From the NCBI GenBank assembly GCA_963924565.1, contig OZ004607.1, positions 29,140,001 to 29,204,000 of the forward strand: a stretch of 64,000 nt of DNA, written 5' to 3'. Made by a program: the position numbers and the translations under genes. Under the pieces are notes generated by a model. That model ran no database searches. It worked only from the letters and a program-made list of their open reading frames with translations, and had not been told where the DNA came from. The DNA is from Ascidiella aspersa (lineage: Eukaryota). Within the stretch, counting starts at the first letter, position 1. Each line of letters starts with the position of its first letter. Shown piece by piece: positions 1,085 to 37,900 of the stretch.

Positions 1085-4000
1085 CTAGGACTTGTGAAAT
1101 GGTCTCGCGCCAGGAATTCTAACCAGAGAGTCAGAACTAAACCTCCGTATGACACGTTTTGCGGCGTCTGAGGTGGAAGCTTGTGGGACATTAGCACGCC
1201 TTGTGGCAACGTGGTTGCCCTGCTTCGTTGGGCGCTTTGAAGAGTTAAGCCTCGCAGAAGTTGTAGTTCCAGTGGTAACCATCTTTGAGGGGGGGTTTGG
1301 TTTTTTAAAATCAGTGCTGGGTATTGGGGGTTTAATTTTGGCCGATAAGACAGTTTTGGGGGTTGAAGTTGCTTGGGGTGAAGGGCTGGTTTCCTTTGTC
1401 CTGTCCGGTGAAGTCCGAGCAGACGATGTAATGTTGAACAGGTCAAACTTATCCATGACGTCATGCTCTGCCTGCAAAATGTACAATTACAGCGATTATT
1501 TTGCTTTGTATTTTTTTAAGTACCACCAAAGGCGGATCACAAGTATTTGCATGTTGTGGTTTATTGCAGGCTTGTCGTAATATAGTCTCAAAAAACTAAC
1601 ACATTTCGGTCAAATAGTTTTACAAATAAAATTCTTATTTTTTTTTTTTTTTGAACGCTTCACGATTTTGCGTGTCATCCTACAAATAAAATACTTGCAG
1701 TTTTAACTTGTAAAGGTTCTATCAAGTAATATTGTTTATTGAAGCAATACTTTTTTGAACACCAATGCAAAACCCAGTATGAAATCACTATATGGGTAGC
1801 AGATTCATAATTATAGGTCAGCAAATCTATGCATGCTTTCTACAAACATAAAGGTACATAATACAGTTCAAGATTGTTCAAATGAAATGAAATATATCCA
1901 CAAACATTCTATAGACATAAAAAAAAATTTAACATGTTTAAGATGAACAACGATTATTGTCAATTTATCCAACATCCAAAAGACATAGGGGGAAGATTTT
2001 TCTATTTTAAACTACTAAAACACTTGGGTACTCCATATCAAATCCTCACAAAAATTTAAATTTTGTAACCACCTGTCTCAGACTTTCATGATATTTACGT
2101 TGTGCATAATATGGAACAAAAAAATAAATCCGTAAAAAAAAAAAAATTGTAAAAATTCCAAAACCTTTTTTACGATGCATGTAAAGTATGTTTCTCACTA
2201 TTTTGGGGGTCAAAAGTGCACTTTAGCAGCAATTAGAAAGAAAAAAATGTATGCATTTCGAGCTAAATTGCTAAAGCAAATATTTAAAAACCCATTTATT
2301 TCATATAGCAAGAATTTTCAAATAAGCTTAACATGTAAAATTAGACTTGTTGAAAAACAGTTTTACAGGTAGAATTGGACAATTTGGCTATAAATGAAAC
2401 AATCATGCTGTATACCTTAGCACTTAGTCTTATGATAAGAAAAGTAAGACAACCTCAAAACAATTTCTCAGCAAAGTATGAACAAAATTTGCCACTATGA
2501 TACACTACACCAGGGGTCCGCAAATACTTATTGGCGCAATCCAAAATTACCAGTACCATGGTCACATCTTAGCACAAGAACGTTAAATAACCCTGCTTTG
2601 TCCAGCCTAACTCAATGCGTCAAGCGCAACCGGATTGTTTGCATCTGGTTTTATTAGCAAAACTTTTCATCTAAAAGAATCGTCGACGCGCTTGACCACA
2701 CAAAAATATATTTCCGCATCACATTAGTATCCCACAGCTGTATAGAAAACGCATTAACCACATAAAGATTCGCGTAAAGCGTCTTATAATATCTTGTTTA
2801 TATCGTTTAAATTTGTGAAAAACTACATAACCTGGTTAAGCAGTTTATGTTTGCCAAAAAGATAATATTATCAGACAAAATAATTAAACAGTGCAACGTG
2901 CTCACAACGCTTTGGTTAAAGAAAACGGGCTGAAAAGTAGAATAATGTTTTTTGGAAAAACATACTAGGAAGTCAACCCAGATTCCGGCTAAGCAGATCA
3001 GTTTGGTGTTTCGGTAATGGCCAAAAAAAATAATAGTGTTAGATTGCCAGTGCTCTTTTCCCTCAACTGGATCAAACAAAAGTCTCACAACATTTTACGG
3101 GTCTTAGTGTGAAAATATTGCGTGGCAACGTTAGTCGCGCTCAAATAAGACAGCTCTCTTGTGTATAATTTAGTGTACTAATGAAAACAATTAAAAACTT
3201 ACCAAAGATAGGCTGCGATTAAAACACATTAAGGGATTCGCGACCCAAACTGGATGGTCCCGCCACCCAAATTTGGGTCCCGACCCCGTATTTGCGGACC
3301 CCTGCACTACACTACTACATTTAATGTTGGTTTTGTGGGAGACTCAATTGTTATATTTCACCTCTTGAAAATAAAGGCATGATACCGCCTGGGTATTCTG
3401 TAGTAGGCATTTGTAAAGAAATCAATAATTAAATTTGATGAATGCAATATTACAATAGTCAAGAGATTAGTTATCTGCTTTGGCAGTAACGTCATTGTAC
3501 TCTATCCTTTCATTAATGGTAGATGGGGTTGCAACCGTTTGTATAATGTTTTGGTATGGGACCCAACAAACATCAGTCTTCTCTGCCCACTTGATGTTTT
3601 TTGTTCCACTTGGATGCATAAAAGAAACAAATGCTTCTTTGTCATTGTCATCTTTGTCCTTAACAACTCCAATCCACCAAACATTGTCATATTTACATGC
3701 TATGTAAGACATGATCTTCAGTTTCATAGTTTCTGGCTGCCTAAAATGCTTAAAAATGACGAGTTCTTTTTGTCTATTTGTATCTAATTGACCAACTAGA
3801 TACAGGTTGAAAGTGGTGATAAGAGTGCGTTCCTTTGATAGTTGTTCCAATCAAATATACTAGCTTCAGAAAATGACTTGTTGTTTTTAACTCTTCTGTT
3901 CGAAGTATGAAAAAGTGTACACCACGAATGTAGTTTTTACAAAATCTAAATAAAGTTTCATTAGTCAAAATTTGATCTTCATATTTAAATTGTCATCCAA

Positions 4001-10904: not shown

Positions 10905-13900
10905 GTAAGTTGTGACTGTTCTTGCCTTTTATCATGCTTTACACGCGTCGTTAGTGTAGTGTTCCGGCTTCCAAACAGTCCACGTTCACATTATTTTGGT
11001 AAAAATGCACTCGACAACCGCATACTGATATATTAGTCTTTGGCCCAGACTTTTTTTAGGCAGATTTTTCCTGTCTATCTTGATTGTTTGACCATTGTTA
11101 TTTTTGGCAAGGTTACCCTACTACCGGCTAACATTTATTCTGAATCCATATTGTTTGAGCATGAGAACAGCTCTATAAGAGCCTTCAGGATTGTTTCCTG
11201 GTTGTTCAATTGCACCTAAATTTTTTACTGGCCATATAAACACGACTTATTTACTTATATTTACACGTGCTTACACGTTCGTGCGTGGCTTTATGCCATC
11301 GTTTTATCCCGAAGGCGTTTTGCCCAAGTACGCCTGAATGACGCTATACATGACTATTTGTCCACCAAATATAAACATCTACGATAAGTCATGGGAACAT
11401 TACGCGGCATATAGGATACAGCTTTGTCAATCTGATATTTAGCAAAATCTCGCTACGTAACATAATAATTTAAAAGGCTTTTGCATTACTGCACTTGTGT
11501 CACAGAAAAAACTATAAAAATATTTAGTTGCTCCATTGGGCACAGACAAATACCACTTCTATTGTACAGTAGGGTTAGTTATATGTGGATGAAAAAGTTG
11601 GAAGCGTATCCAATTTTTTACACAAAATACACCAAATTATTTGTCCAAACACTTCACAACATTTTTTTAATTTTTTTTTGTTAAATTATTAGGACTGTTG
11701 ATGTTAATACACTCTAACGTCTTATGTTAACTAAAGTTGGAAATAAATTCTAGTATTGTAAACAAATCGTTTTGAAATGACGTAACTCCACGTCAAGTCG
11801 TTTTCAAAAAATAGCAAGCCAGTCAAAATCCAAATCAACAATCCCAGTCCATCAACACATTGTAATAAGTAAAATTCAAGTCACATCATTTACATAAAAC
11901 AATGTTAAACTTAGAAAAATTAAAAAGCCCATCAAATAGCAAGTTTATAATAGTGTACAAATTAAAGAGATTTGTATTTCTATTTTTTGTTCCTGATCGT
12001 ACAACGAAATCTGTGGCCCTTTAATAAATTAGTGCAAAACGTTTCTCCTCTATCTCGAAAACTTGCTCTTTAAGTAAATTGAATAGTTTTTTTGACACAA
12101 CGTAATAACAATGAAACCCTTATATAATGTGGCGCAAAAAAGCTTTGTGTTTGAATTAAATACAGAAATAGTTGTTAACCTTGGCGGCCAGACTCAAACC
12201 TGCTATAGTCACACATACAATGTTTTTTTAAGGTGTTTTTTTTTTATTTCTCCAGCGGTTTCCCAAATTTTGGACTTGCAACTTTTTGGTATTTAAATGA
12301 AACACTTGCGGTCTCTTAAAACTACTTAGCGGTCACCCAAACCAAACCTTAAAAAAGCCCTGCACACATATATGAACCGCCCCCATTGTGATCTTCATAC
12401 TTTACTAAACCCAACAAACTTTGAAGCGCAGATATCCCGTTATAATTGTTTTTGCGTCAGTAACACGCGTCTTGGCGAACATGTGCCTGTGGATATGTTA
12501 GACCTCATCATACCTATCGTCTTTCACTAGCACTTTTTCTTCTTATTCGTTCATATTATTTATTTTCATTTCTGCTTTGACCTGATGAAACACGGTTGTG
12601 CAAAAGCTTGTCGAGAATTGAATACAGTTTGTCGTCAAATAGTACCAACTTATTGCCCTATTTATACTTTACAGCCAACGTCGCTGGAACCTGTGGAGGG
12701 GTCATAAGCGGCAAAGCCGGCGGCAGAATAGCCAGCCCCAACTTTCCGAACTCCAATTACCCACCCGAGATTAAGTGCGAATGGGAAATTATTGCTCCGA
12801 GCGATTCAGTTGTTGTGGTGAGTATACGTCGGTTCCTAACCCTTTTTAACCGTCCTTTTTTACAATCGTCCTAGCTTTGCCTTGCATCCTCCTCCTCAGA
12901 CTTAATAATACCAAAAGCAATTCGGTAGTTGTTGATCACACAACAACCAGAATAACATGTAAATACTAAAGTTGATCGTTTGCGTAAAAATGCGCGTAGT
13001 TGGTGGAGATCGGCTAAACTTTAATTTAAGAAACGGACAAATCGGTCACACAAATGTGTGAATTGCTCGTGTTGTAATCAATCTGATATTGACAAACATG
13101 TTGTGAGGCTAAGCTAAATAGAAACCACGTGAAAAGTGGCCAAAACTGTGTAAAAAGGTATACATTGCGTAATCTTGTCTTAAAAGGTGTAATGCACAAG
13201 GCAATGACCATATTGCAAGAACATCATAGATTTACACAAACTGGGTAGCCTGGGTAACCCGTGTATACTTTAGGCTAAAACACATGTCATACAATGTTAT
13301 GCGCAGATATAGTTTGAACTAAAAATGTCTATGAAAGACAATAAAATAAAAGCGTTTTTTTATTTTTGCAGTTTTTTAGTGTACTTTGTGGTCGGGATGT
13401 CGTGGTACCGAACCCGTGACAAACAAATCACAAATCGATCGTTAAAAGTATAGCAAATTGAGAAAAAGGGGACCAAACTCCGGGAAACTACTTATAATTA
13501 CCTCATATGCAGTTTAATGGCTTGTATTCCTACAGTGAAAAATACAGCTATTAAACTTACAAAAAGGTTTATTAAATGTACATGTGTAATTTTGGAACGC
13601 ATAAAAGAAGAATTAACACAATACACCAATCGCAGCATGAAATCAATACAAAAGGTAGATATCAGAGAACATCACGCTGGGTTGGCGCCATCTCCCCATT
13701 TTAGGGGTATCGTAAAGTACTAAACTCAGGTTTAAATTAGGTACTTTTCACTTCTTGATTAAAGTGATTACTATTCGTTTATTTAAATGCAATTTTTTGT
13801 CAATTTTAGTACTCAACACTTTCATTCTGTCAATTTAAAGAATAATACTAATACTTTATTGTGTGTGTCTTATTGTCACATTTCTTAATCTTTTAATTAG

Positions 13901-25900: not shown

Positions 25901-28900
25901 AGCGGACTGGTTCCGGGTAAGATTTATTAATAATAACGTATTTACGTTAGGGTGCCATTAATTTGGCGGATATTGACAACCAGTTTGCTTGCATGACACG
26001 TTACCAATGTTCAAATTATAAACGATTTGCTCGATTCTCAGTTTGCGCCCAAAGTCATCTATGACAGTAATGTAAAATATATGACAGTAACTATAAGAAC
26101 CAAACATCGCTTATCATATGAATTGTCGCTAAAGTTAAGTTGTTTATTTAATAAAAAAATATTAATATGTACAATAAAACATCTAAACTTATGTTCGATA
26201 ATGTAAAACCATGAAACTTTAATGACGAGTTTTATACCTAACGTCCAGCGGGAGAAATTTAGCCAGCCTTATAGAACACGCACACTAGTGCAGGAAAGGC
26301 ATAATTTTGGTAGATTCTAACTTGAAATTCAGACATGCCGCTGTCAATATAACAACACAGCTGTTACAGTATATGCCACATGACGGTGGTGATTTTAGTT
26401 TTATAGAAGGTACTATAAAGTTATTTGAAAAATACTGAATGTACTTTTTTATGTTGTCAAAACTTTAATTTTTTAAGTAAGTACGTGAAATAGCTTTTGT
26501 TGCATCTATTCGGTAGCTTAACTTTTTTTAGAGAAACTTTAATGACTTTACTAAATTGTCTTTGCTTCGACAGAGAGATCCTATTCGGTGCAGATTTTTA
26601 GTTACGCCAACGGCAAAGAGACCTCCTCTCGTATTATTGAAATTAACACACCAAAAACGTCTATGGCACCCGTGATTACAACAACGTCAGCTCCAGGTAA
26701 TCACTTAAACCTCTCCGAACCACTTTATGTTGCTAACCTGGCAGCAATAAGGTTTATTTTTCAAAAGTATAATCTCATGAAATCTTTTGTCATTTGAAAT
26801 TTCAATTACACAATATCAATTTAGAAATGATTCGGTAATTGAAATTTTTGGGGGAGGTTTAGCGACATCCCAAATTGTTTACCGTTTAAACAAGAGTTGT
26901 CCCATGAAATCGGGTCTTAAACCATAGTCAAATGTTACATTTAATTATCGATGTTAAGTTGATTTTAAGGTCGTTCTCTTCCCGGAAAAGATTGAAAAAG
27001 GGGGATTCACAGCTATGGTAAGCTGTGCAACCCATAATTTATCACTGGTGAAGATGCTGATCGTTTAATTGCTAAGTTGTAAAGATCCAACTGCGGTCAC
27101 TATAGTTCGAAATCCACTATTTTGGTAACTGTGTCATTTGTAGGCTACCTTAAACAAACGAACAAATGCCGTGTTTTCAGGCTTGAAGTGCAGCGATACT
27201 GAGATTGCCTGCGACGGCGGGTGTCTTCTTTTGGAGTTCGTGTGTGACGATAACAACGATTGTGTGGACGGAGCTGATGAGAAGGACTGCAGCAATTCAA
27301 CAAGTAGGGTCTACTCTATAAAGAGTCTATTGTCTTTGACCAACGTATAAACATTTTAATCCTTACGTTTTTATTTACGACTGAATATTTTTTCAACTGC
27401 TGACGTTTATTTATTGTTTGTGTTTTTTTTAATTTAGGTTGTGATCCAGGTCAATTCAGTTGCTCTGGCAAATGCATCGAATCGAGTGCAGTGTGCGATA
27501 ATGTTGTGGACTGCGACGACGGAACAGACGAAATTGACTGTGAAGGTTTGGCAATGTTTTATGAAGAAAATTTACAATAAATGATTTTCTGATTTTCTAC
27601 TTTGACCTGATGAAGCACGTTTGTCCGAAAGCTTGTGAAGATTTAAATACAATTTGACTATTTATAGTTCCACCTGATTACCCTTTTTACAATAAATGAG
27701 AATAATTATGCAAAATAGCCAATTTTCACAGTAGCAGATTTTTGATCATGGTAATAAGATATAAAAAATAGTGTCAAATTGGCAGTTTTTAGGAAATTAT
27801 AGCTTTATGAGGAAATAAAAACTTGACATTGAAAAACAAGGGATTTTTGCCGTTCAAATAACGATTTTTTCCAAAAATACTTTTTGTGATATATATTTTT
27901 CGGCATCATTTTTCTGTTACAAATTGGAACACTAACATAAACAAGCACTTTCCCTCTAACCTATGATCGAAAGTGCACTGGCAAATTACAGCGGGTATAA
28001 CAAACAGCAAAACTTAAAGTCACTGTTATACCTATTCATCTGTAAACAATCTGTCGCTTATAATTAGAAACCACGACAACACCTTCGACCAGCACAGCGG
28101 CAGAGGTTATCACAACACCGACTAGCGCTTTAACGCAAGCCGGACAAAGTCCCACCACCCTAACAACAGCATCAACAGCAGCGCCAGCAACGCAAAGGCC
28201 AACGACCCCCGGAAACAGCTGCGGTTCGAACCTGGTCTTCGACACCTGTGCCAGTCCTTGTGACCACAAGTGCACCGACGGGGAAGCCCCGCCACCCTGC
28301 AGCAAGCGTTGCGTGACGAGATGTACCTGCCCCCTCGCCGCTCCGATCTTGCACCAAGGAAGGTTTGCATCGCACTGTTTTAGCGCTTTTCTTGAGTTCA
28401 GAAGTTTGCAGCCGTTTAAACTCCTGTTTATGAGTGAACCTTATAACTCAACAAATTTTCATCTCGAAGTAATGCAAACTTCTCACTTCAAACTTTGTAA
28501 AACAGGCTCCAATTAAATTCTGATGAAAAAAGCAAGTCATATCTCAGTTTTACCATTTTAAATAATCATATATTCTTGTAGGAAGGAGACTAGTCTCCAC
28601 CAACACTGTAGAAAACCCACATTCAGGAGTTTTTGTTTCTTGCTTTAACATCATATTATGCCAATCGCAACGGAAGAGTTATTTTAATATTTATTTTCTA
28701 TAACAAGTTAATTCTTGGATGTAGACTTCTTTAACACTAGGCTATACAACCAAGAAACTGTAACTATACGTCGTTATCATACAGTGCCAAATTTTCATAA
28801 CAACGCTTTTCAATGTACTACCCTTCAAAAAAATATTATTGCTCCAAAGGTGCATCACGTTTCTTACCTGTCCGGAGCTTGAACCGGTTACGACGCTAAC

Positions 28901-31900
28901 GGTTCCAAAGGTTACCGACACCTCAGCTGTCGTATCGTTTGGCTCCGTGCCATCGGCGGGAAGCTACAGGGTGGAGTTCTTCCAGACCTTCAACCCTTTT
29001 GACACGATCAGCAAAACCGTGCCACCCGGCAACGGTTCTAGGACGGAAGTTCTTGTCAGCAACTTACAACCAGGTTCGCTTGGTGAACTTGTAGTGTATA
29101 ACTACTGCTTGTTTTACTTGTTTACAATGTCCAACATTGCAAGTTGTCCATCCATCTTTATACCAATGCTTTTCGATGAACTTATGCTGTTTTAGGGTGT
29201 AATCCCAACCTTGGTATTTTATAACTTTTGTTTCTTTGACAATGAAAAGTAGTTCATAGATATTTCGACTTCTTAGTTGTTTAACTTAATGTATGCTAAA
29301 AAGCAGGCTAACTTTATATTTAGACGAATAAAAAGCATCGTTTGGAAGTGGTAGGCTTTAATGTCATTTGATGCTTTACAGATACAATGTAGGAGCCAAT
29401 GCAAACATTGCTGCTAACATAATTGTCTGGCATCAACATAAAATGAGATGACATTGTTATATAGCCAAAACGTTTTACATATAGGCAAATATCACGGCGA
29501 ACGGCATAACCCGTTTCTCCAACAATTGATATGACGAAAATAGGGATAACAAATTGTTTCAGAGTATAAACGACTGTTCTCCGACTAATTGTAAATCATT
29601 TTTAGTAAGGCTATCTTATAGAAAAAAACTTCCATCAAGTGAAAAAGTCATTTTTTAGTTAAGTAAGCTGTTAAACCCGTAGGCGCACTCCATAACTTGT
29701 ATTTTAATCTTCAGACACGCGCTACTCGGTTCAGGTGTTTAGCATCAGAGGCGAGGAGGAGGAAGCCTCCGCCTTCGAACATTTCAAAACCGAAACGAAG
29801 CCGACCAACCCACCTCCCGCGACGACCACACCCCCTCCAACAACGACTCGTACAGCTCCACCGACAACGACCACAGCCACTACCACCACCACTGGTAAAA
29901 TTTATATTCTAAGCAATGATGGCGCAAACCAGTGATTTAATGCCAAGTATAGTTAGTGGGAAAGTAACAGATTTATGTAGGCTCTACTACTGAAAATTGA
30001 TAATCTCCACTATAAAACGCGAGGCTATAGTGATGCATACCCATGTGTCGAAGCAAGACGTTAACCAATTTATTTCTTTTGTAAATTCTCAACACATGTC
30101 TATAGTTGGCAGAGTGACTGCAGTTTCTATGAATTGAAATCAAACTATAGTTTTGTCTGACCCTTACCGATAGTGTTTATATATATTTTTAATTATATCT
30201 TTCCAATGTCCACCAATTTCGATAGGTTCCTCATCTTTTGTTGTGGACACAACCACAACTTTGCCGCCTGTTCAGATAACATCCGCCATCACCAGAACGC
30301 CGACAGAACAGGATGCCTCAGTCAATGCGGCAGGTAAATGAGAACTCTGAAAAAGTGCTGATTTTTCTGGAGCTTTCTAAACAAAGTGACATATTTCATT
30401 GGAAATTAAAATTGCATATGAAACCAAGAGAGTTACATTTCTCTTAACTTCATCTTTTCTCGCGGATTGACTTCCAACATTTCAAAGAAATGGCCGCATG
30501 AGCAGCAGAGACCGGTTGAGATATTATATAATTTTCTTCTGTCGTAGACATTTTGAAGGTCACTATCAAGTTCGACGTTTCCCTCTTTCTAAACATGCTC
30601 TATTTCTATTACGTAGGATGTTTGACTGACGAATTTACCTGCAAAAACGGCCAGTGCATTCAGGGGAGTTTCAAATGCGACAATATACCCGATTGCGACG
30701 ACGGATCTGACGAAGCTAACTGCACAGGTAAAGGGAGTAATATGTATTTTCATGCTGCAGACAATAACTAAAAGTAAACTGTGAGGAATTACCGTCACGT
30801 TAAATCCAGTACAGGTAAGTGTCACGCCATTGGAAGTTTATTCATTATAGTTTATTTTACTCTTACCGAAGTGAATTTACATTAGTTTGTCTAGTCTGAT
30901 GTAAATGGATAGTTCAAATACGGCAACAAAACCTATTTCGAAATCCTGACCTTTATGCAATACAACACGCAAATCGTATTTCATATGAGGATTTATCCAG
31001 TTAAAAGTTTTTTTATAGCCTGTACAAAAGCGATTACTAAATGAAAGTTCTCTAATGGAATATTTGCAGCTTGTCAAGACGGCCAGTTCGCTTGTGTCGA
31101 CAAATGCATTGAACTTACCCAACTCTGCGACGGGGTAATCGACTGTGCGGATGCATCCGACGAGAAGTTATGCCCAGGTAAATCAAAGGCACGTCTTACC
31201 TCAAGTTGTGTTTAATACTATATTTATTATGGCACAACTCATTCCCAAACAGCCTAACCAGTAGGCTTACAACTGATGGTAGTTAAATTTCTTAATATTA
31301 GTCTATTTTGATTGTTAGAGCATAGTAATGACGTCATTGATATCGGATCGTATCGCCCTACTTTTGTCTAAAATATCAAGTATCGGTAATGGATTAAACT
31401 AAGTATCGGACATCTCTAACAGTGAACATAGCTTTTAGAGATTCTTTGTTACTATAAGACCAAACAGCTATTTGTAACATTCTTCTAATGTCCTTTTAAC
31501 TTTTTGTTGCCTTAAACTACTATAAATTTTTTCCAATAAGAAACAACAACAACTGAAGCCACGACCACTCAAACGACGACAACACAACCAACAACCACAA
31601 ATCCTTCCACTACCAGCCAGCCAACGACAACCAGAGCTACGACTACCAGAACAACAACCAGGAGAACCACTACGCCACAAGCTACAGTACCAGGTTTACC
31701 AACAGCACCAGCGATCACACATTTATTGCGGTTAAAGATTAGTGTAAAGCCCATAAATGTTATCTAAAATAGCTTAAAATCACAACAAGGAATGCAATTC
31801 GAACAGGAGCGGTGACACTTATTTAGTGTGAGGCAACATTTCTATTATATTGAACTTAAACATCGATAATAGCCTTATTTCATATCAAACTGCATAACCT

Positions 31901-34900
31901 GTCTAACAACAATTGACACGACAAAAATAGGGCTAAAAAATTGGTTCAGAGTATAAGTTTACCCCTTGCTCAACATGCCCTTTTTCTGTTATGCAGGATG
32001 TTTTCCCAACGAATTTACCTGCAAAAACGGCCAGTGCATTCAGGGGAGTTTCAAATGCGACAATTTACCCGATTGCGACGACGGGTCTGACGAAGATAAC
32101 TGCACAGGTGAAGGGAGTAATATGTATTTTCATGTTGCAGACAATAACTAAAAGTAAACTGTGAGGAATTACCGTCACGTTAAATCCAGTACAGGTAAGA
32201 GTCACACTGTTGAAAGTTCATTTTTTATAGTTTATTTTACCGAAGTGAGTTTGCATTAGTTTGTCTAGTCTAATGTAACTGAATAGTTCAGATAGGGCAA
32301 CAAAACCTATTTCAAAATCTTGACCTTTATGCAATACACCACGCAAATCGTATTTCATAGTAGGTTTTATCCAGTTAAAAGTTTTTTTTGTACCCTGTAC
32401 AAAAGCGATTACTAAATGAAAGTTCTCTAATGGAATATTTGCAGCTTGTCAAGACGGCCAGTTCGCTTGTGTCGACAAATGCATTGAACTTACCCAACTC
32501 TGCGACGGGGTAATCGACTGTGCGGATGCATCCGACGAGCAGTTATGCCCAGGTAAATCAAGGACACGTCCAAGTTGTCTCACCTCAAGTTGTGTTCAAT
32601 ACTATATTTTTTATGACACATCTCTTTCTGTTTGCTTTGCCCAAACAGCCTAACAAATGAAATTGTTGACGAATTGCTTAGCATAGACCGGCAATAGGAT
32701 AGTTTTCTTACAACTATTAGACAGCACTACAACGATAGTGACCAAAAGGTATTCCAACTGCCATTAATGTTCTGTAACAAAAGATAGGCCTAAGCCTGCT
32801 ACAAAGACCAAATGAATTTGGCAAAAACTCCTAACAAAACCCAACTCATATATCATAAATCTTAACTATAGAAATGAATAGAGATGTCCGACTATAACGT
32901 ATTGGAACCGATACCCGATGCCGAGTGGCAGTGTCGGTACTATAGAACCCCACTAGGGTAGTATCGGTACCGATCCGGTACCAAATTGTTATCGGTATTT
33001 TTAACCTGATTTGCCATTCAATGCAGTAATTCCACATGTTAAGGTATAGATTCACAAAATAATACTAGGCTTACAACTGATGGTAGTTAAACTTCTTAAT
33101 ATTAGTCTATTTGGATTGTTAGAGCATAGTAATGACGTCATTGATATCGGATCCCATCGCCCTACTTTTTCTAAAATATCGAGTATCGGTATTGGATTAA
33201 ACTAAGTATCGGACATCTCTAACAGTGAACATAGCTTTTAGAGATTCTCTGTTACTATAAGAGCAAACAACTATTTGTAACATTCTTCCAATGTCCTATT
33301 AACTTTTTGTTGCCTTAAACTACTATAAATTTTTTCCAATAAGAAACAACAACAACTGAAGCCACGACCACTCAAACGACTACAACACAACCAACAACCA
33401 CAAATCCTCCCACTACCAGCCAGCCAACGACAACCAGAGCTACAACTACCAGAACAACAACCAGGAGAAACACTACGCCACAAGCTACAGTACCAGGTTT
33501 ACCAACATCACCAGCGATCACACATTTATTGCGGTTAAAGATTAGTGTAAAGCTCATAAATGTTATCTAAAATAGCTTAAAATCACAACAAGGAATGCAA
33601 TTCGAACAGGAGCGGTGACACTTATTTAGTGTGAGGCAACATTTCTATTATATTGAACTTAAACATCGATAATAGCCCTATTTCATATCAAACTGCATAA
33701 CCTGTCTAACAACAATTGACACGACAAAAATAGGGCTAAAAAATTGGTTCAGAGTATAAGTTTACCCCTTGCTAAACATGCCCTTTTCTGTTATGCAGGA
33801 TGTTTTCCCGACGAATTTACCTGCAAAAACGGCCAGTGCATTCAGGGAAGTTTCAAATGCGACAATATACCCGATTGCGACGACGGGTCTGACGAAGCTA
33901 ACTGCACAGGTGAAGGGAGTAATATGTATTTTCATGATGCAGACAATAACTAAAAGTAAACTGTGAGGAATTACCGTCACGTTAAATCGAGTACAGGTAA
34001 GTGTCACACCATTGGAAGTTTATTCTTTATATTTTATTTTACCGAAGTGAGTTTACATTAGTTTGTCTAGTCTAATGTAACTGAATAGTTCAGATAGGGC
34101 AACAAAACCTATTTCAAAATCTTGACCTTTATGCAATACAACACGCAAATCGTATTTCATAGTAGGATTTATCCAGTTAAAAGTTTTTTTTGTACCCTGT
34201 ACAAAAGCGATTACTAAATGAAAGTTCTCTAATGGAATATTTGCAGCTTGTCAAGACGGCCAGTTCGCTTGTGTCGACAAATGCATTGAACTTACCCAAC
34301 TCTGCGACGGGGTAATCGACTGTGCGGATGCATCCGACGAGCAGTTATGCCCAGGTAAATCAAGGACACGTCCAAGTTGTCTCACCTCAAGTTGTGTTCA
34401 ATACTATATTTTTTATGACACATCTCTTTCTGTTTGCTTTGCCCAAACAGCCTAACAAATGAAATTGTTCACGAATTGCTTAGCATAGACCGGTGATAGG
34501 ATAGTTTTCTTACAACTATTAGACAGCACTACAACGATAGTGACCAAAAGGTATTCCAACTGCCATTAATGTTCTGTAACAAAAGATAGGCCTAAGTCTG
34601 CTACAAAGACCAAATGAATTTGGCAAAAACTCCTAACAAAACCCAACTCATATATCATAAATCTTAACTATAGAAATGAATAGAGATGTCCGACTATAAC
34701 GTATTGGAACCGATACCCGATGCCCAGTGGCAGTGTCGGTACTATAGAACCCCACTAGGGTGGTATCGGTACCGATCCGGTACCAAATTGTTATCGATAT
34801 TTTTAACCTGATTTGCCATTCAATGCAGTAATTCCACATGTTAAGGTATAGATTCACAAAATAATAGTAAGCTTACAACTGATGGTAGTTAAACTTTTTA

Positions 34901-37900
34901 ATATTCATATATTTTGATTGTTAGAGCATAGTAATGACGTCATTAATATCGGATTGTATCGCCATACTTTTTGTCTAAAATATCGAGTATCGGTATTGGA
35001 TTAAACTAAGTATCGGACATCTCTAACAGTGAACATAGCTTTTAGAGATTCTTTGTTACTATAAGAGCAAACAACTATTTGTAACATTCTTCCAATGTCC
35101 TTTTAACTTTTTGTTGCCTTAAACTACCATAAATTTTCTCCAATAAGAAACAACAACAACTGAAGCCACGACCACTCAAACGACGACAACACAACCAACA
35201 ACCACAAATCCTCCCACTACCAGCCAGCCAACGACAACCAGAAGAACAACCAGGAGAACCACTACGCCACAAGCAATAGTATCAGGTTTAACCAACGTCA
35301 ACAACGATCACACATTTATTGCGGCAAAATATTAGTGTAAAGCCCATAAATGTTATTGTATACCTTAAAATCACACCAATTATGCAATTCGAATACGAGC
35401 GTTGACACTTATTAATTGTGAGGTTTAGCATCGGTAATAGGCTTATTTCTGTGTGTAGAGTGTACACTAATCAATAATAAAACTCAAAGTTTAAAAACCA
35501 GAGTAAAATCAGGATAAGACATACTGACATCGTCAGTTCCTATAAGTAAAGTTAAATACAACGAAAGATATATCCCTTTCAAAATATTGTCTGATCCTGA
35601 TTTTACTCTGGTTTTTAAACCTTGAGTTTTATTGTTTATATGCGCGTCAGCGGAACAGTGATCGACAAGCAGAAACCTGCTGCCAATGTTTTTGGAAAGA
35701 TACGCGCTTCTATATACACTAATCAAAGTTTGTTACAAAAGTGTAATTTAAGGGAAATTGATATTTGCTTAACTCACACAATACCACCCGAATACGTAAG
35801 TCTACCTAGCGCCACCCATCAGATTTTCCTAAGTTGACTGTTTATATCCCCTCACTAGCAAATTAACTTTAGATGAAGCGATAATTATCAATAAAGCGAT
35901 AATTAAAATATTGTGCAAGTAAGAATTTGACATATTTTCGAGTTCGGGTGCTGCCACATAAAGTACAGGTCGAATATTGAAACCGGTATTTGCTATGTGG
36001 GGTGAGATATCACTAGGGGTAACTATATTTGTTGTGCAGCCACACTAATGTGAGAACAGGCGCGCAATGAGTATATAGGTAATATTGAATACCAAAGTAA
36101 ATCGGCTTAAAAGTTCGTACTCCGATTCGCAATTCCAGGCCAAGCCATTAGAAGGCAAGAGTCGGTTTTCCTGAATAAGTCTTAAAAAACATTTAAACTC
36201 CTGGAAGTCACACAATCGTGACTCAAAAGAAATGTTTCTTTAACGATCTGATATTGTAGCAAGTTGATTAAGTGTTATAATCTGCCAATTGTGAAGTTCT
36301 TTGTTAGACATTTTTGAAATCACTTTTGAGAGTATTGAAACCGGCAATCGTTATGTGTGGTACAATATTACTAAGGGTACCTATATTTGTTGTTGTGCAG
36401 CCACACCAATGTGCGAACAGGCGCGGAACGAGTTTCTACGCCAACTGCCAACCAACCCAAGTCTGATGTCGCGCTTTCCAGACTGCACCGGCCCCGGCCT
36501 GTACAAGGACGTGCAGTGCGACCGGGCCGCCCGGACCTGTCGCTGCGTGGTGCCCGAGACCGGCACCACAGTCCCTGGCACCCTTACCCCGACCAGCGAC
36601 GGAACGCCGGACTGCACTGGTTAGTTGGAAAATATATTTGGGCAATTTTGTTTCTTTTGGAAAAGTGATGAAAACATTGGAAAACAGAATATAGAAACGA
36701 TAGGTGTTATTGAACAGTAGTGGTATATTGTATTGTTGGAAATTTTTTAAAAAGTCTTTGGTTAGTTGTGAAATGAGTAAATACTTGTTGGTGTTGTTGG
36801 AAAACAGTTGAAAATTAATTTGTTTTGTTGAAAACGGAAAACTTTTCGGTTTTGTTAAAAAATAATTCAAAAAATTGTTGAAGTTGTTTAAAATTTAGTT
36901 GAAAAATGTTAGTGTTGGGAAAATCATTTTTGGCGCCGCTGTGCTACAGTAAAAAAAAAACAATTTTCGAACACAAATGATTGAGAACTCTTTGGTTTTC
37001 TATTATGTAGTCATTTGGTCTCCATTGTAATAAAATAGGTTTATTACGTATGTTCGCTTTTCAACTGCACCCAGTGTAAATAAGTGTTTTGTGTACTGGC
37101 CAAGATGTTTTTTGATAGTTCGGAAACAATATTTAAAACTTATTTTTACAGCTGTGTTTGTGCAATTCCCACATGCTATTTGCTACGGTTTACTTATGTT
37201 TATAGCGGAAAATGTTCGACTTTGTATTTAACTTTATTGTGCTCTCTATAAGTCTCTATTAGTGTCTGTTTTCGTACCTCTAATATCCGCGTAAATAATG
37301 TCTTGTTTGTGCAGCGCTTACCGAATGTCAGAAGCAATTCGTCGCGGTCTCCCGGAACCAGTTCCAGAACCCCACCAGTTCGACTGGCGAGCTTCCGAAG
37401 TGCAACGACAAGGGCTTGTTCATATCTAAGCAGTGCAATAAAGCCCTGGGTAGTTGTTGGTGCGTGATTCCGGAGACAGGGGATACAATATCATCGACCG
37501 AAACGAACGATGGAAGTCAGCTGGATTGCAGCAGTAAGTGGCATCTACCCCGAATTTTGGAGCAGAAGTTGAATTGTATTGTAGACACTGGAAATGTTTG
37601 TGTAACCTAACGTATTGGAAGAATGTACAATAATCTTGACGATTGGTCTTTGTGGTATTCTAATAAAAGCCGAACCACTTACATTCTAAGCCTGTTTACA
37701 TGTTCTATATACGTAGTTTCTTTTTATATAATAATTTTGTAAACCGATTGTATTTTGTCATTATGTCATGAACAAAATTTTGGTCGACCAATATTTCACA
37801 ATCATGAGAACCCTACATTAGGAACACAACACAGGACCAGGGCCGGATTTAGGGTACTGTAGGCCTAAGGCTGTTTACTAGAGAATGGCCTTATTTTGCA

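Follow-up and report, generated by a model that had tools for sequence, protein, structure and literature searches.

The hammerhead-bearing insert at positions 27585-27685 of the window, by which we mean the whole 64,000-nucleotide stretch of Ascidiella aspersa DNA analysed here, is very probably the 5′-truncated and decayed 3′ end (pseudo-LTR) of a family of Penelope-like elements, and its hammerhead a likely inactive passenger of the intron in which it lies. The feature is real but ordinary: a decayed solo Penelope-like end with a known minimal hammerhead. Minimal type I hammerheads in the pseudo-LTRs of metazoan Penelope-like elements were already described in 2014 by Cervera and De la Pena (PMC4209133), and genome-wide we found at least about 2,480 matches to the core of minimal hammerheads in several repeat families, the window copy among them: 781 with the AAGCTT layout of the window copy (control 25) and 1699 with an ACGT palindrome (control 69). 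The value of the family lies in what can be read from it about how Penelope elements insert, with two start regions and stops just past the ribozyme.

Direct reading of the sequence places the 14-mer TTTACAATAAATGA at 27571-27584 and again at 27686-27699, bracketing an insert of 101 bp on the plus strand, as the earlier note had proposed; Penelope-like elements are recognised in part by target-site duplications of variable length, here 14 bp. With the tandem-repeat exons set aside, a 14-mer that recurs 60-200 nt downstream is found at only two places in the window, of which the insert is one. When compared with a young copy of the family, the insert, which lacks the 3′ tail, is 85% identical over 27594-27693, and 94 of 112 aligned positions (84%) are the same. 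Homology to the family is clear from 27594, the first 9 nt being uncertain, and the 3′ boundary is fuzzy because the first 8 nt of the right duplication resemble the next bases of the element. One other copy, longer and older (copy 1), was found in the window, also on the plus strand, at about 12400-12664 and some 15 kb from the insert; it is 78% identical to the insert over 96 bp (12569-12664, E 2e-17).

The motif in the window copy has the type I layout. The 5′ arm of stem I (TTTGAC, 27601-27606) is followed by the intact core C3-A9 (CTGATGA, 27607-27613), by an unpaired A at 27614 of the kind described for minimal hammerheads (PMC4209133), by a 4-bp stem II hairpin (27615-27626), by G12-A13-A14, the 4-nt palindrome AGCT where stem III would be, and U17 (27627-27634), and by the 3′ arm of stem I (GTGAAG, 27635-27640). 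The GAAA lies at 27627-27630 and the longer palindrome AAGCTT at 27629-27634, so that the intact core and the replacement of stem III claimed for this site can be read directly; the cut is predicted after 27634 by numbering inferred from the standard hammerhead scheme. The stem lengths of the family (6 bp for stem I and 4 bp for stem II) are the canonical metazoan ones in PMC4209133, unlike those of the minimal Schistosoma hammerheads given there, but the window copy differs from the motifs of that paper in having one mismatch in each stem. Two substitutions relative to the family in the 3′ arm of stem I (TTTGAC/GTGAAG) leave one G.G mismatch and stem II (GCAC/GTCC) is broken by a C.C mismatch, whereas both stems pair in 30 of 57 family arms. 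As the earlier note held, both mismatched positions are paired in copy 1 and the consensus of the two copies is a fully paired type I hammerhead, which we found to equal the family majority. That note was right about the paired positions of copy 1 but gave its extent as only 12576-12615, and it did not mention that G12 and G10.1 have been lost by mutation, so that the minimal type I core (CUGANGA...GAAA...UH), present in the window copy at 27607-27634, is incomplete in copy 1. The bare core pattern is no more frequent in the 64 kb than expected by chance (2 seen, 2.8 expected), and an Rfam scan of the window gave 11 weak matches with no hammerhead at E ≤ 10; the case for the motif therefore rests on the genome-wide family.

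A search of the genome (309 Mb) raised 1348 candidates, of which 40 were scored, yielding 51 matches. The 35-nt motif has 295 exact genome copies and its downstream flank 584 matches (control 0 for both), and by eye about 92 of the 100 AAGCTT core matches listed belong to the family of the insert. Copies arranged head to head extend 5′ into a GIY-YIG coding region. In the longest copy found, at locus L049, an ORF of 488 amino acids (1871-3337) carries RVT_1 (E 3e-10) and GIY-YIG (E 2e-7) domains, both above the Pfam cut-offs, and ends about 180 nt upstream of the hammerhead. A linked ORF that joins a reverse transcriptase to a GIY-YIG domain at its C terminus is the mark of endonuclease-positive Penelope elements. 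The protein also has a CX4CxxC finger before the GIY-YIG domain and a CxxC inside the GIY-YIG motif; a CX2-5CxxC finger in that place is a criterion for Neptune and Nematis in Craig et al. 2021 (PMC8557442). The criteria of that paper place the family among Penelope-like elements with a C-terminal endonuclease, of the Neptune or Nematis type, but it differs from those elements in being known without a full-length copy: the L049 copy is 5′-truncated and frameshifted, and no full-length ORF between two direct pseudo-LTRs was present among the top-scored candidates of the family searches. Beyond the tail, 62 tail matches have no sequence in common, except in duplicated loci. Several copies are 97-99% alike and the family has therefore been active recently. 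The earlier proposal of a mobile, hammerhead-bearing family linked to Penelope thus holds up, both in copy number, which it had suggested be determined, and in the copies that run into the RVT_1/GIY-YIG ORF.

Of 4949 candidates, 1138 are homologous to the L049 protein at E ≤ 1e-30. We noted that the best named homologues are from turtle (about 50% identity), with invertebrate chordate matches at 37-39%, a ranking that possibly reflects an old horizontal transfer or just database bias. At two loci on contig 1 (2.45-2.46 Mb), which are duplicated copies, the family end is joined directly to a LINE-like ORF.

For the analysis of insertion geometry, arms were sampled by the downstream flank to avoid selection on the ribozyme. 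All 74 matches on contig 1 and 13 on contig 2, among the 584, gave 87 arms, or 83 after removal of 4 segmental duplicates. Counted from C3, the 3′ ends lie at +71 to +90 in 43 arms, at +109 to +115 in 36 and between these positions in 4, forming two groups about 35 nt apart; an optional tail of 30-40 bp has been tied to two reverse-transcription start sites (PMC11167929). The 5′ ends lie more than 100 nt upstream in 13 arms, at -100 to -31 in 13, -30 to -5 in 34, -4 to +22 in 9, +23 to +33 in 4 and beyond +33 in 10. The window insert, whose 5′ end lies at about -13 to -22 and whose 3′ end lies at +78, is in the most frequent class for each of its ends. The 83 arms display the 5′ truncation, inverted adjacent copies and optional 30-40 bp tail by which Penelope elements are known. 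Duplications of 9-13 bp flank 13 of the 51 arms that were not flagged as inverted, a flag that missed some partial inversions, compared with 1 of 51 controls, and in four head-to-head insertions we identified AT-rich duplications of 11-12 bp by eye.

These observations are consistent with an origin in which the GIY-YIG endonuclease of the element would have made a cut staggered by 14 nt in AT-rich DNA of the intron, and the reverse transcriptase would have started at the inner of the two start regions on the element RNA, hence the lack of a tail, and copied about 100 nt before halting just past the hammerhead. Repair would then have generated the 14-bp duplication, and neutral drift after insertion may have cost each stem one pair. 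In the full element, by analogy with published systems, the minimal type I hammerhead would dimerise through the AGCU palindrome and cleave after CUU, possibly aided by the protein of the element.

Similar geometry is on record elsewhere. The green anole element Poseidon (Frangieh et al. 2024, PMC11167929) likewise has two reverse-transcription start regions bounding a tail and AT-rich targets, and there too RNA-seq gave no read ends where the hammerhead would cut; it is of a different clade, however, without the linker finger, and its activity was demonstrated in vitro and is protein-dependent. The Penelope elements of Adineta (PMC3846280) share with the window family solo pseudo-LTRs, head-to-head arms and short duplications, which measure 8-10 bp in Adineta and 9-14 bp in the window family, whose copy number is far higher. 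Non-LTR retrozymes (bioRxiv 10.64898/2026.07.22.740005) are alike in their type I hammerhead, ORF-less unit and proposed Penelope origin, but are defined there as tandem repeats with a complete motif in consecutive units, while the window copy is a single damaged monomer whose one companion in the window is 15 kb away. We rejected the reading of the insert as a separate mini-element or retrozyme, since it is the truncated end of a protein-coding element.

A broader form of that reading, in which the short copies make up a SINE- or retrozyme-like family that is non-autonomous but separate and spreads through cleaved or circular RNA of its own, we regard as very improbable. Short copies do far outnumber those bearing an ORF (the 584 flank matches compare with 28 for the endonuclease region) and their 5′ ends do cluster just upstream of stem I, but these ends form a continuum that reaches -700 and the ORF itself, and only 4 of 83 fall at +23 to +33, around the cut site, which also led us to reject a derivation of the copies from ribozyme-cut RNA. 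A 46-bp triplet of the motif in tandem also speaks for such a family, yet it is one insertion copied within the long inverted arms of a larger repeat, and the window copy is a monomer outside any tandem array.

The pattern of decay also fits passengers derived from the 3′ ends of longer elements. Among 57 arms spanning the motif, 31 of 627 core positions differ (4.9%), with 37 of 684 in stem I and 25 of 456 in stem II, as against 48 of 1042 in the flank (4.6%; core versus flank, p=0.81); the flank count omits 4 of 23 sites that differ in more than 15% of arms and were taken as subfamily markers, and with these it is 109 of 1259 (8.7%). The 54 stem changes comprise 39 that are broken, 14 that are one-sided and a single compensatory one, and the core is intact in 40 of the 57 arms and the entire motif in 30. 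Selection to keep the core in dispersed copies is thus unsupported, the core differing as often as the flank, and these copies, which show no sign of selection, appear to decay neutrally.

The picture differs between families. The ACGT layout represents at least three further families, with varied stem II sequences that pair over up to 9 bp, and across families stem I covaries: 32 of 45 cells are Watson-Crick among 15 distinct arm pairs, compared with 20.2 ± 2.9 in shuffles, only 1 of 10000 shuffles being as high, although relatedness was uncontrolled. This covariation argues that the motif is kept in master elements, where the hammerhead is apparently under selection. The earlier note had made core conservation and stem covariation part of the test of its reading; the stems do covary between families, but in dispersed copies the core is conserved no better than the flank. 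Parent elements of the ACGT families were not found, and beside 30 of their loci (L145-L174) there was one weak match to a Penelope protein. We also observed a 46-bp tandem hammerhead triplet, in a layout capable of dimers, at four loci (L035, L036, L043 and L044) and in shorter form at L137/L177. A repeat of roughly 9-10 kb, present at least 2 times, has inverted arms of 2.4-3.7 kb, and each arm contains the triplet; a similar go-back joint was seen in run X3.

Folding predictions separate the window copy from its young relative. For the 40-mer of the young copy the predicted fold, at -10.2 kcal/mol, contains both stems, with pair probabilities of 0.89-1.0 for 9 of 10 pairs, while in the window copy stem pair probabilities are at most 0.03 and stem II has an energy of +3.1 kcal/mol, compared with -3.6 kcal/mol in the young copy. 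Modelled double-hammerhead dimers gave -17.1 kcal/mol for two young copies (for which an alternative fold is lower, at -27.0 kcal/mol), +3.3 for two window copies and -3.2 for copy 1 with the window copy. With at least 30 nt of flank the motif is predicted to form in none of the three, and since this includes the young copy, folding is only suggestive. Metazoan minimal hammerheads reportedly show no activity in monomeric form and weak activity in dimeric form (PMC4209133), dimer cleavage is attributed to Lunse et al. as cited in PMC6765202, and the cleavage of a Penelope hammerhead was protein-assisted and not needed for insertion in vitro (PMC11167929). Among 433 RNA reads on the young copy, which reveal transcription of the family on both strands, we found no pile-up of read ends at the predicted cut, for which ordinary RNA-seq is a poor test. 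In a young copy (L050:5219-5299) the RNA-DNA differences were mostly A>G, with 19 of 60 listed places in run X4, 11 of 27 in X3 and 0 of 20 in X1. Editing of repeat-derived double-stranded RNA is widely reported, and this excess looks like A-to-I editing of fold-back copies, although the runs are different samples.

The insert begins 39 nt into a 522-nt GT..AG intron (27546-28067, plus strand), in sense orientation; the intron, identified from Pfam and a contig joint of run X3, separates an LDL-receptor class A exon from a Thr-rich/TIL exon. A single contig of this run, for which neither the kind nor the genotype at the insert is recorded, is spliced across the intron and three neighbouring introns. 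Contigs of the DNA-like runs X1 and X2 contain both insertion junctions, and no empty-site joint occurs in these contigs, which drop rare variants. No RNA data set was listed as containing the stretch. A sample of about 6% of the RNA run X4 placed 53 reads at the stretch, 52 of them aligned only partly and none 99% alike, and they are therefore from other copies; the sample had no reads on the flanking exons and has no bearing on expression of the host gene. That gene is large and on the plus strand, with CUB, LDLa, TIL, FN3-like, thyroglobulin-1 and Thr-rich parts.

The suggestion in the earlier note that the ribozyme could affect processing of this transcript is unsupported. We think it most unlikely that the copy has been co-opted and, either by itself or in a dimer formed with copy 1 or with young-copy RNA, cuts host pre-mRNA and so alters splicing or transcript level. 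Its core is intact and sense in the intron, but an intact core is the common state of family arms, and in the dispersed copies the loss of core and stems keeps pace with that of the flank. To judge from exon order, with CUB, MAM-like, LDLa, TIL and FN3 exons in succession on the plus strand, copy 1 and the window copy are likely to be in one transcript, and the 5′ arm of the window copy pairs fully with the 3′ arm of copy 1. Copy 1, however, lacks G12 and is 15 kb off, and the stem II energy, the dimer energies and the published behaviour of metazoan minimal hammerheads given above all speak against cutting, as does the removal of the intron by splicing in the contig. As it stands the feature is of little consequence; it would matter only if intronic passengers truly cut host RNA, and nothing here shows such cutting. 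We consider it most improbable, too, that the core of the window copy and the substrate arm of copy 1 form a split hammerhead, which would cleave the transcript 15 kb upstream at a point about 65 nt ahead of a splice acceptor, or, more generally, that RNA from active elements acts in trans to cleave intronic copies in sense orientation, of which there would be hundreds.

Apart from the insert, we noted that copy 1 appears to be inserted in the pyrimidine tract of a splice acceptor (12397-12675). The last base of a candidate 9-bp duplication directly precedes the AG at 12674-12675, which is the acceptor of a CUB exon; this would place the end of copy 1 where the branch region would be. The surrounding region (12600-54400) appears to be a very large mosaic extracellular protein gene that also has MAM-like exons and mucin-like exons, the latter reaching 4.9 kb; part of it, at about 30500-35400, has recently been duplicated three-fold. 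A 34-bp stretch at 29298-29331, absent in X1, X2 and one X4 read, is a polymorphic insertion in the assembly.
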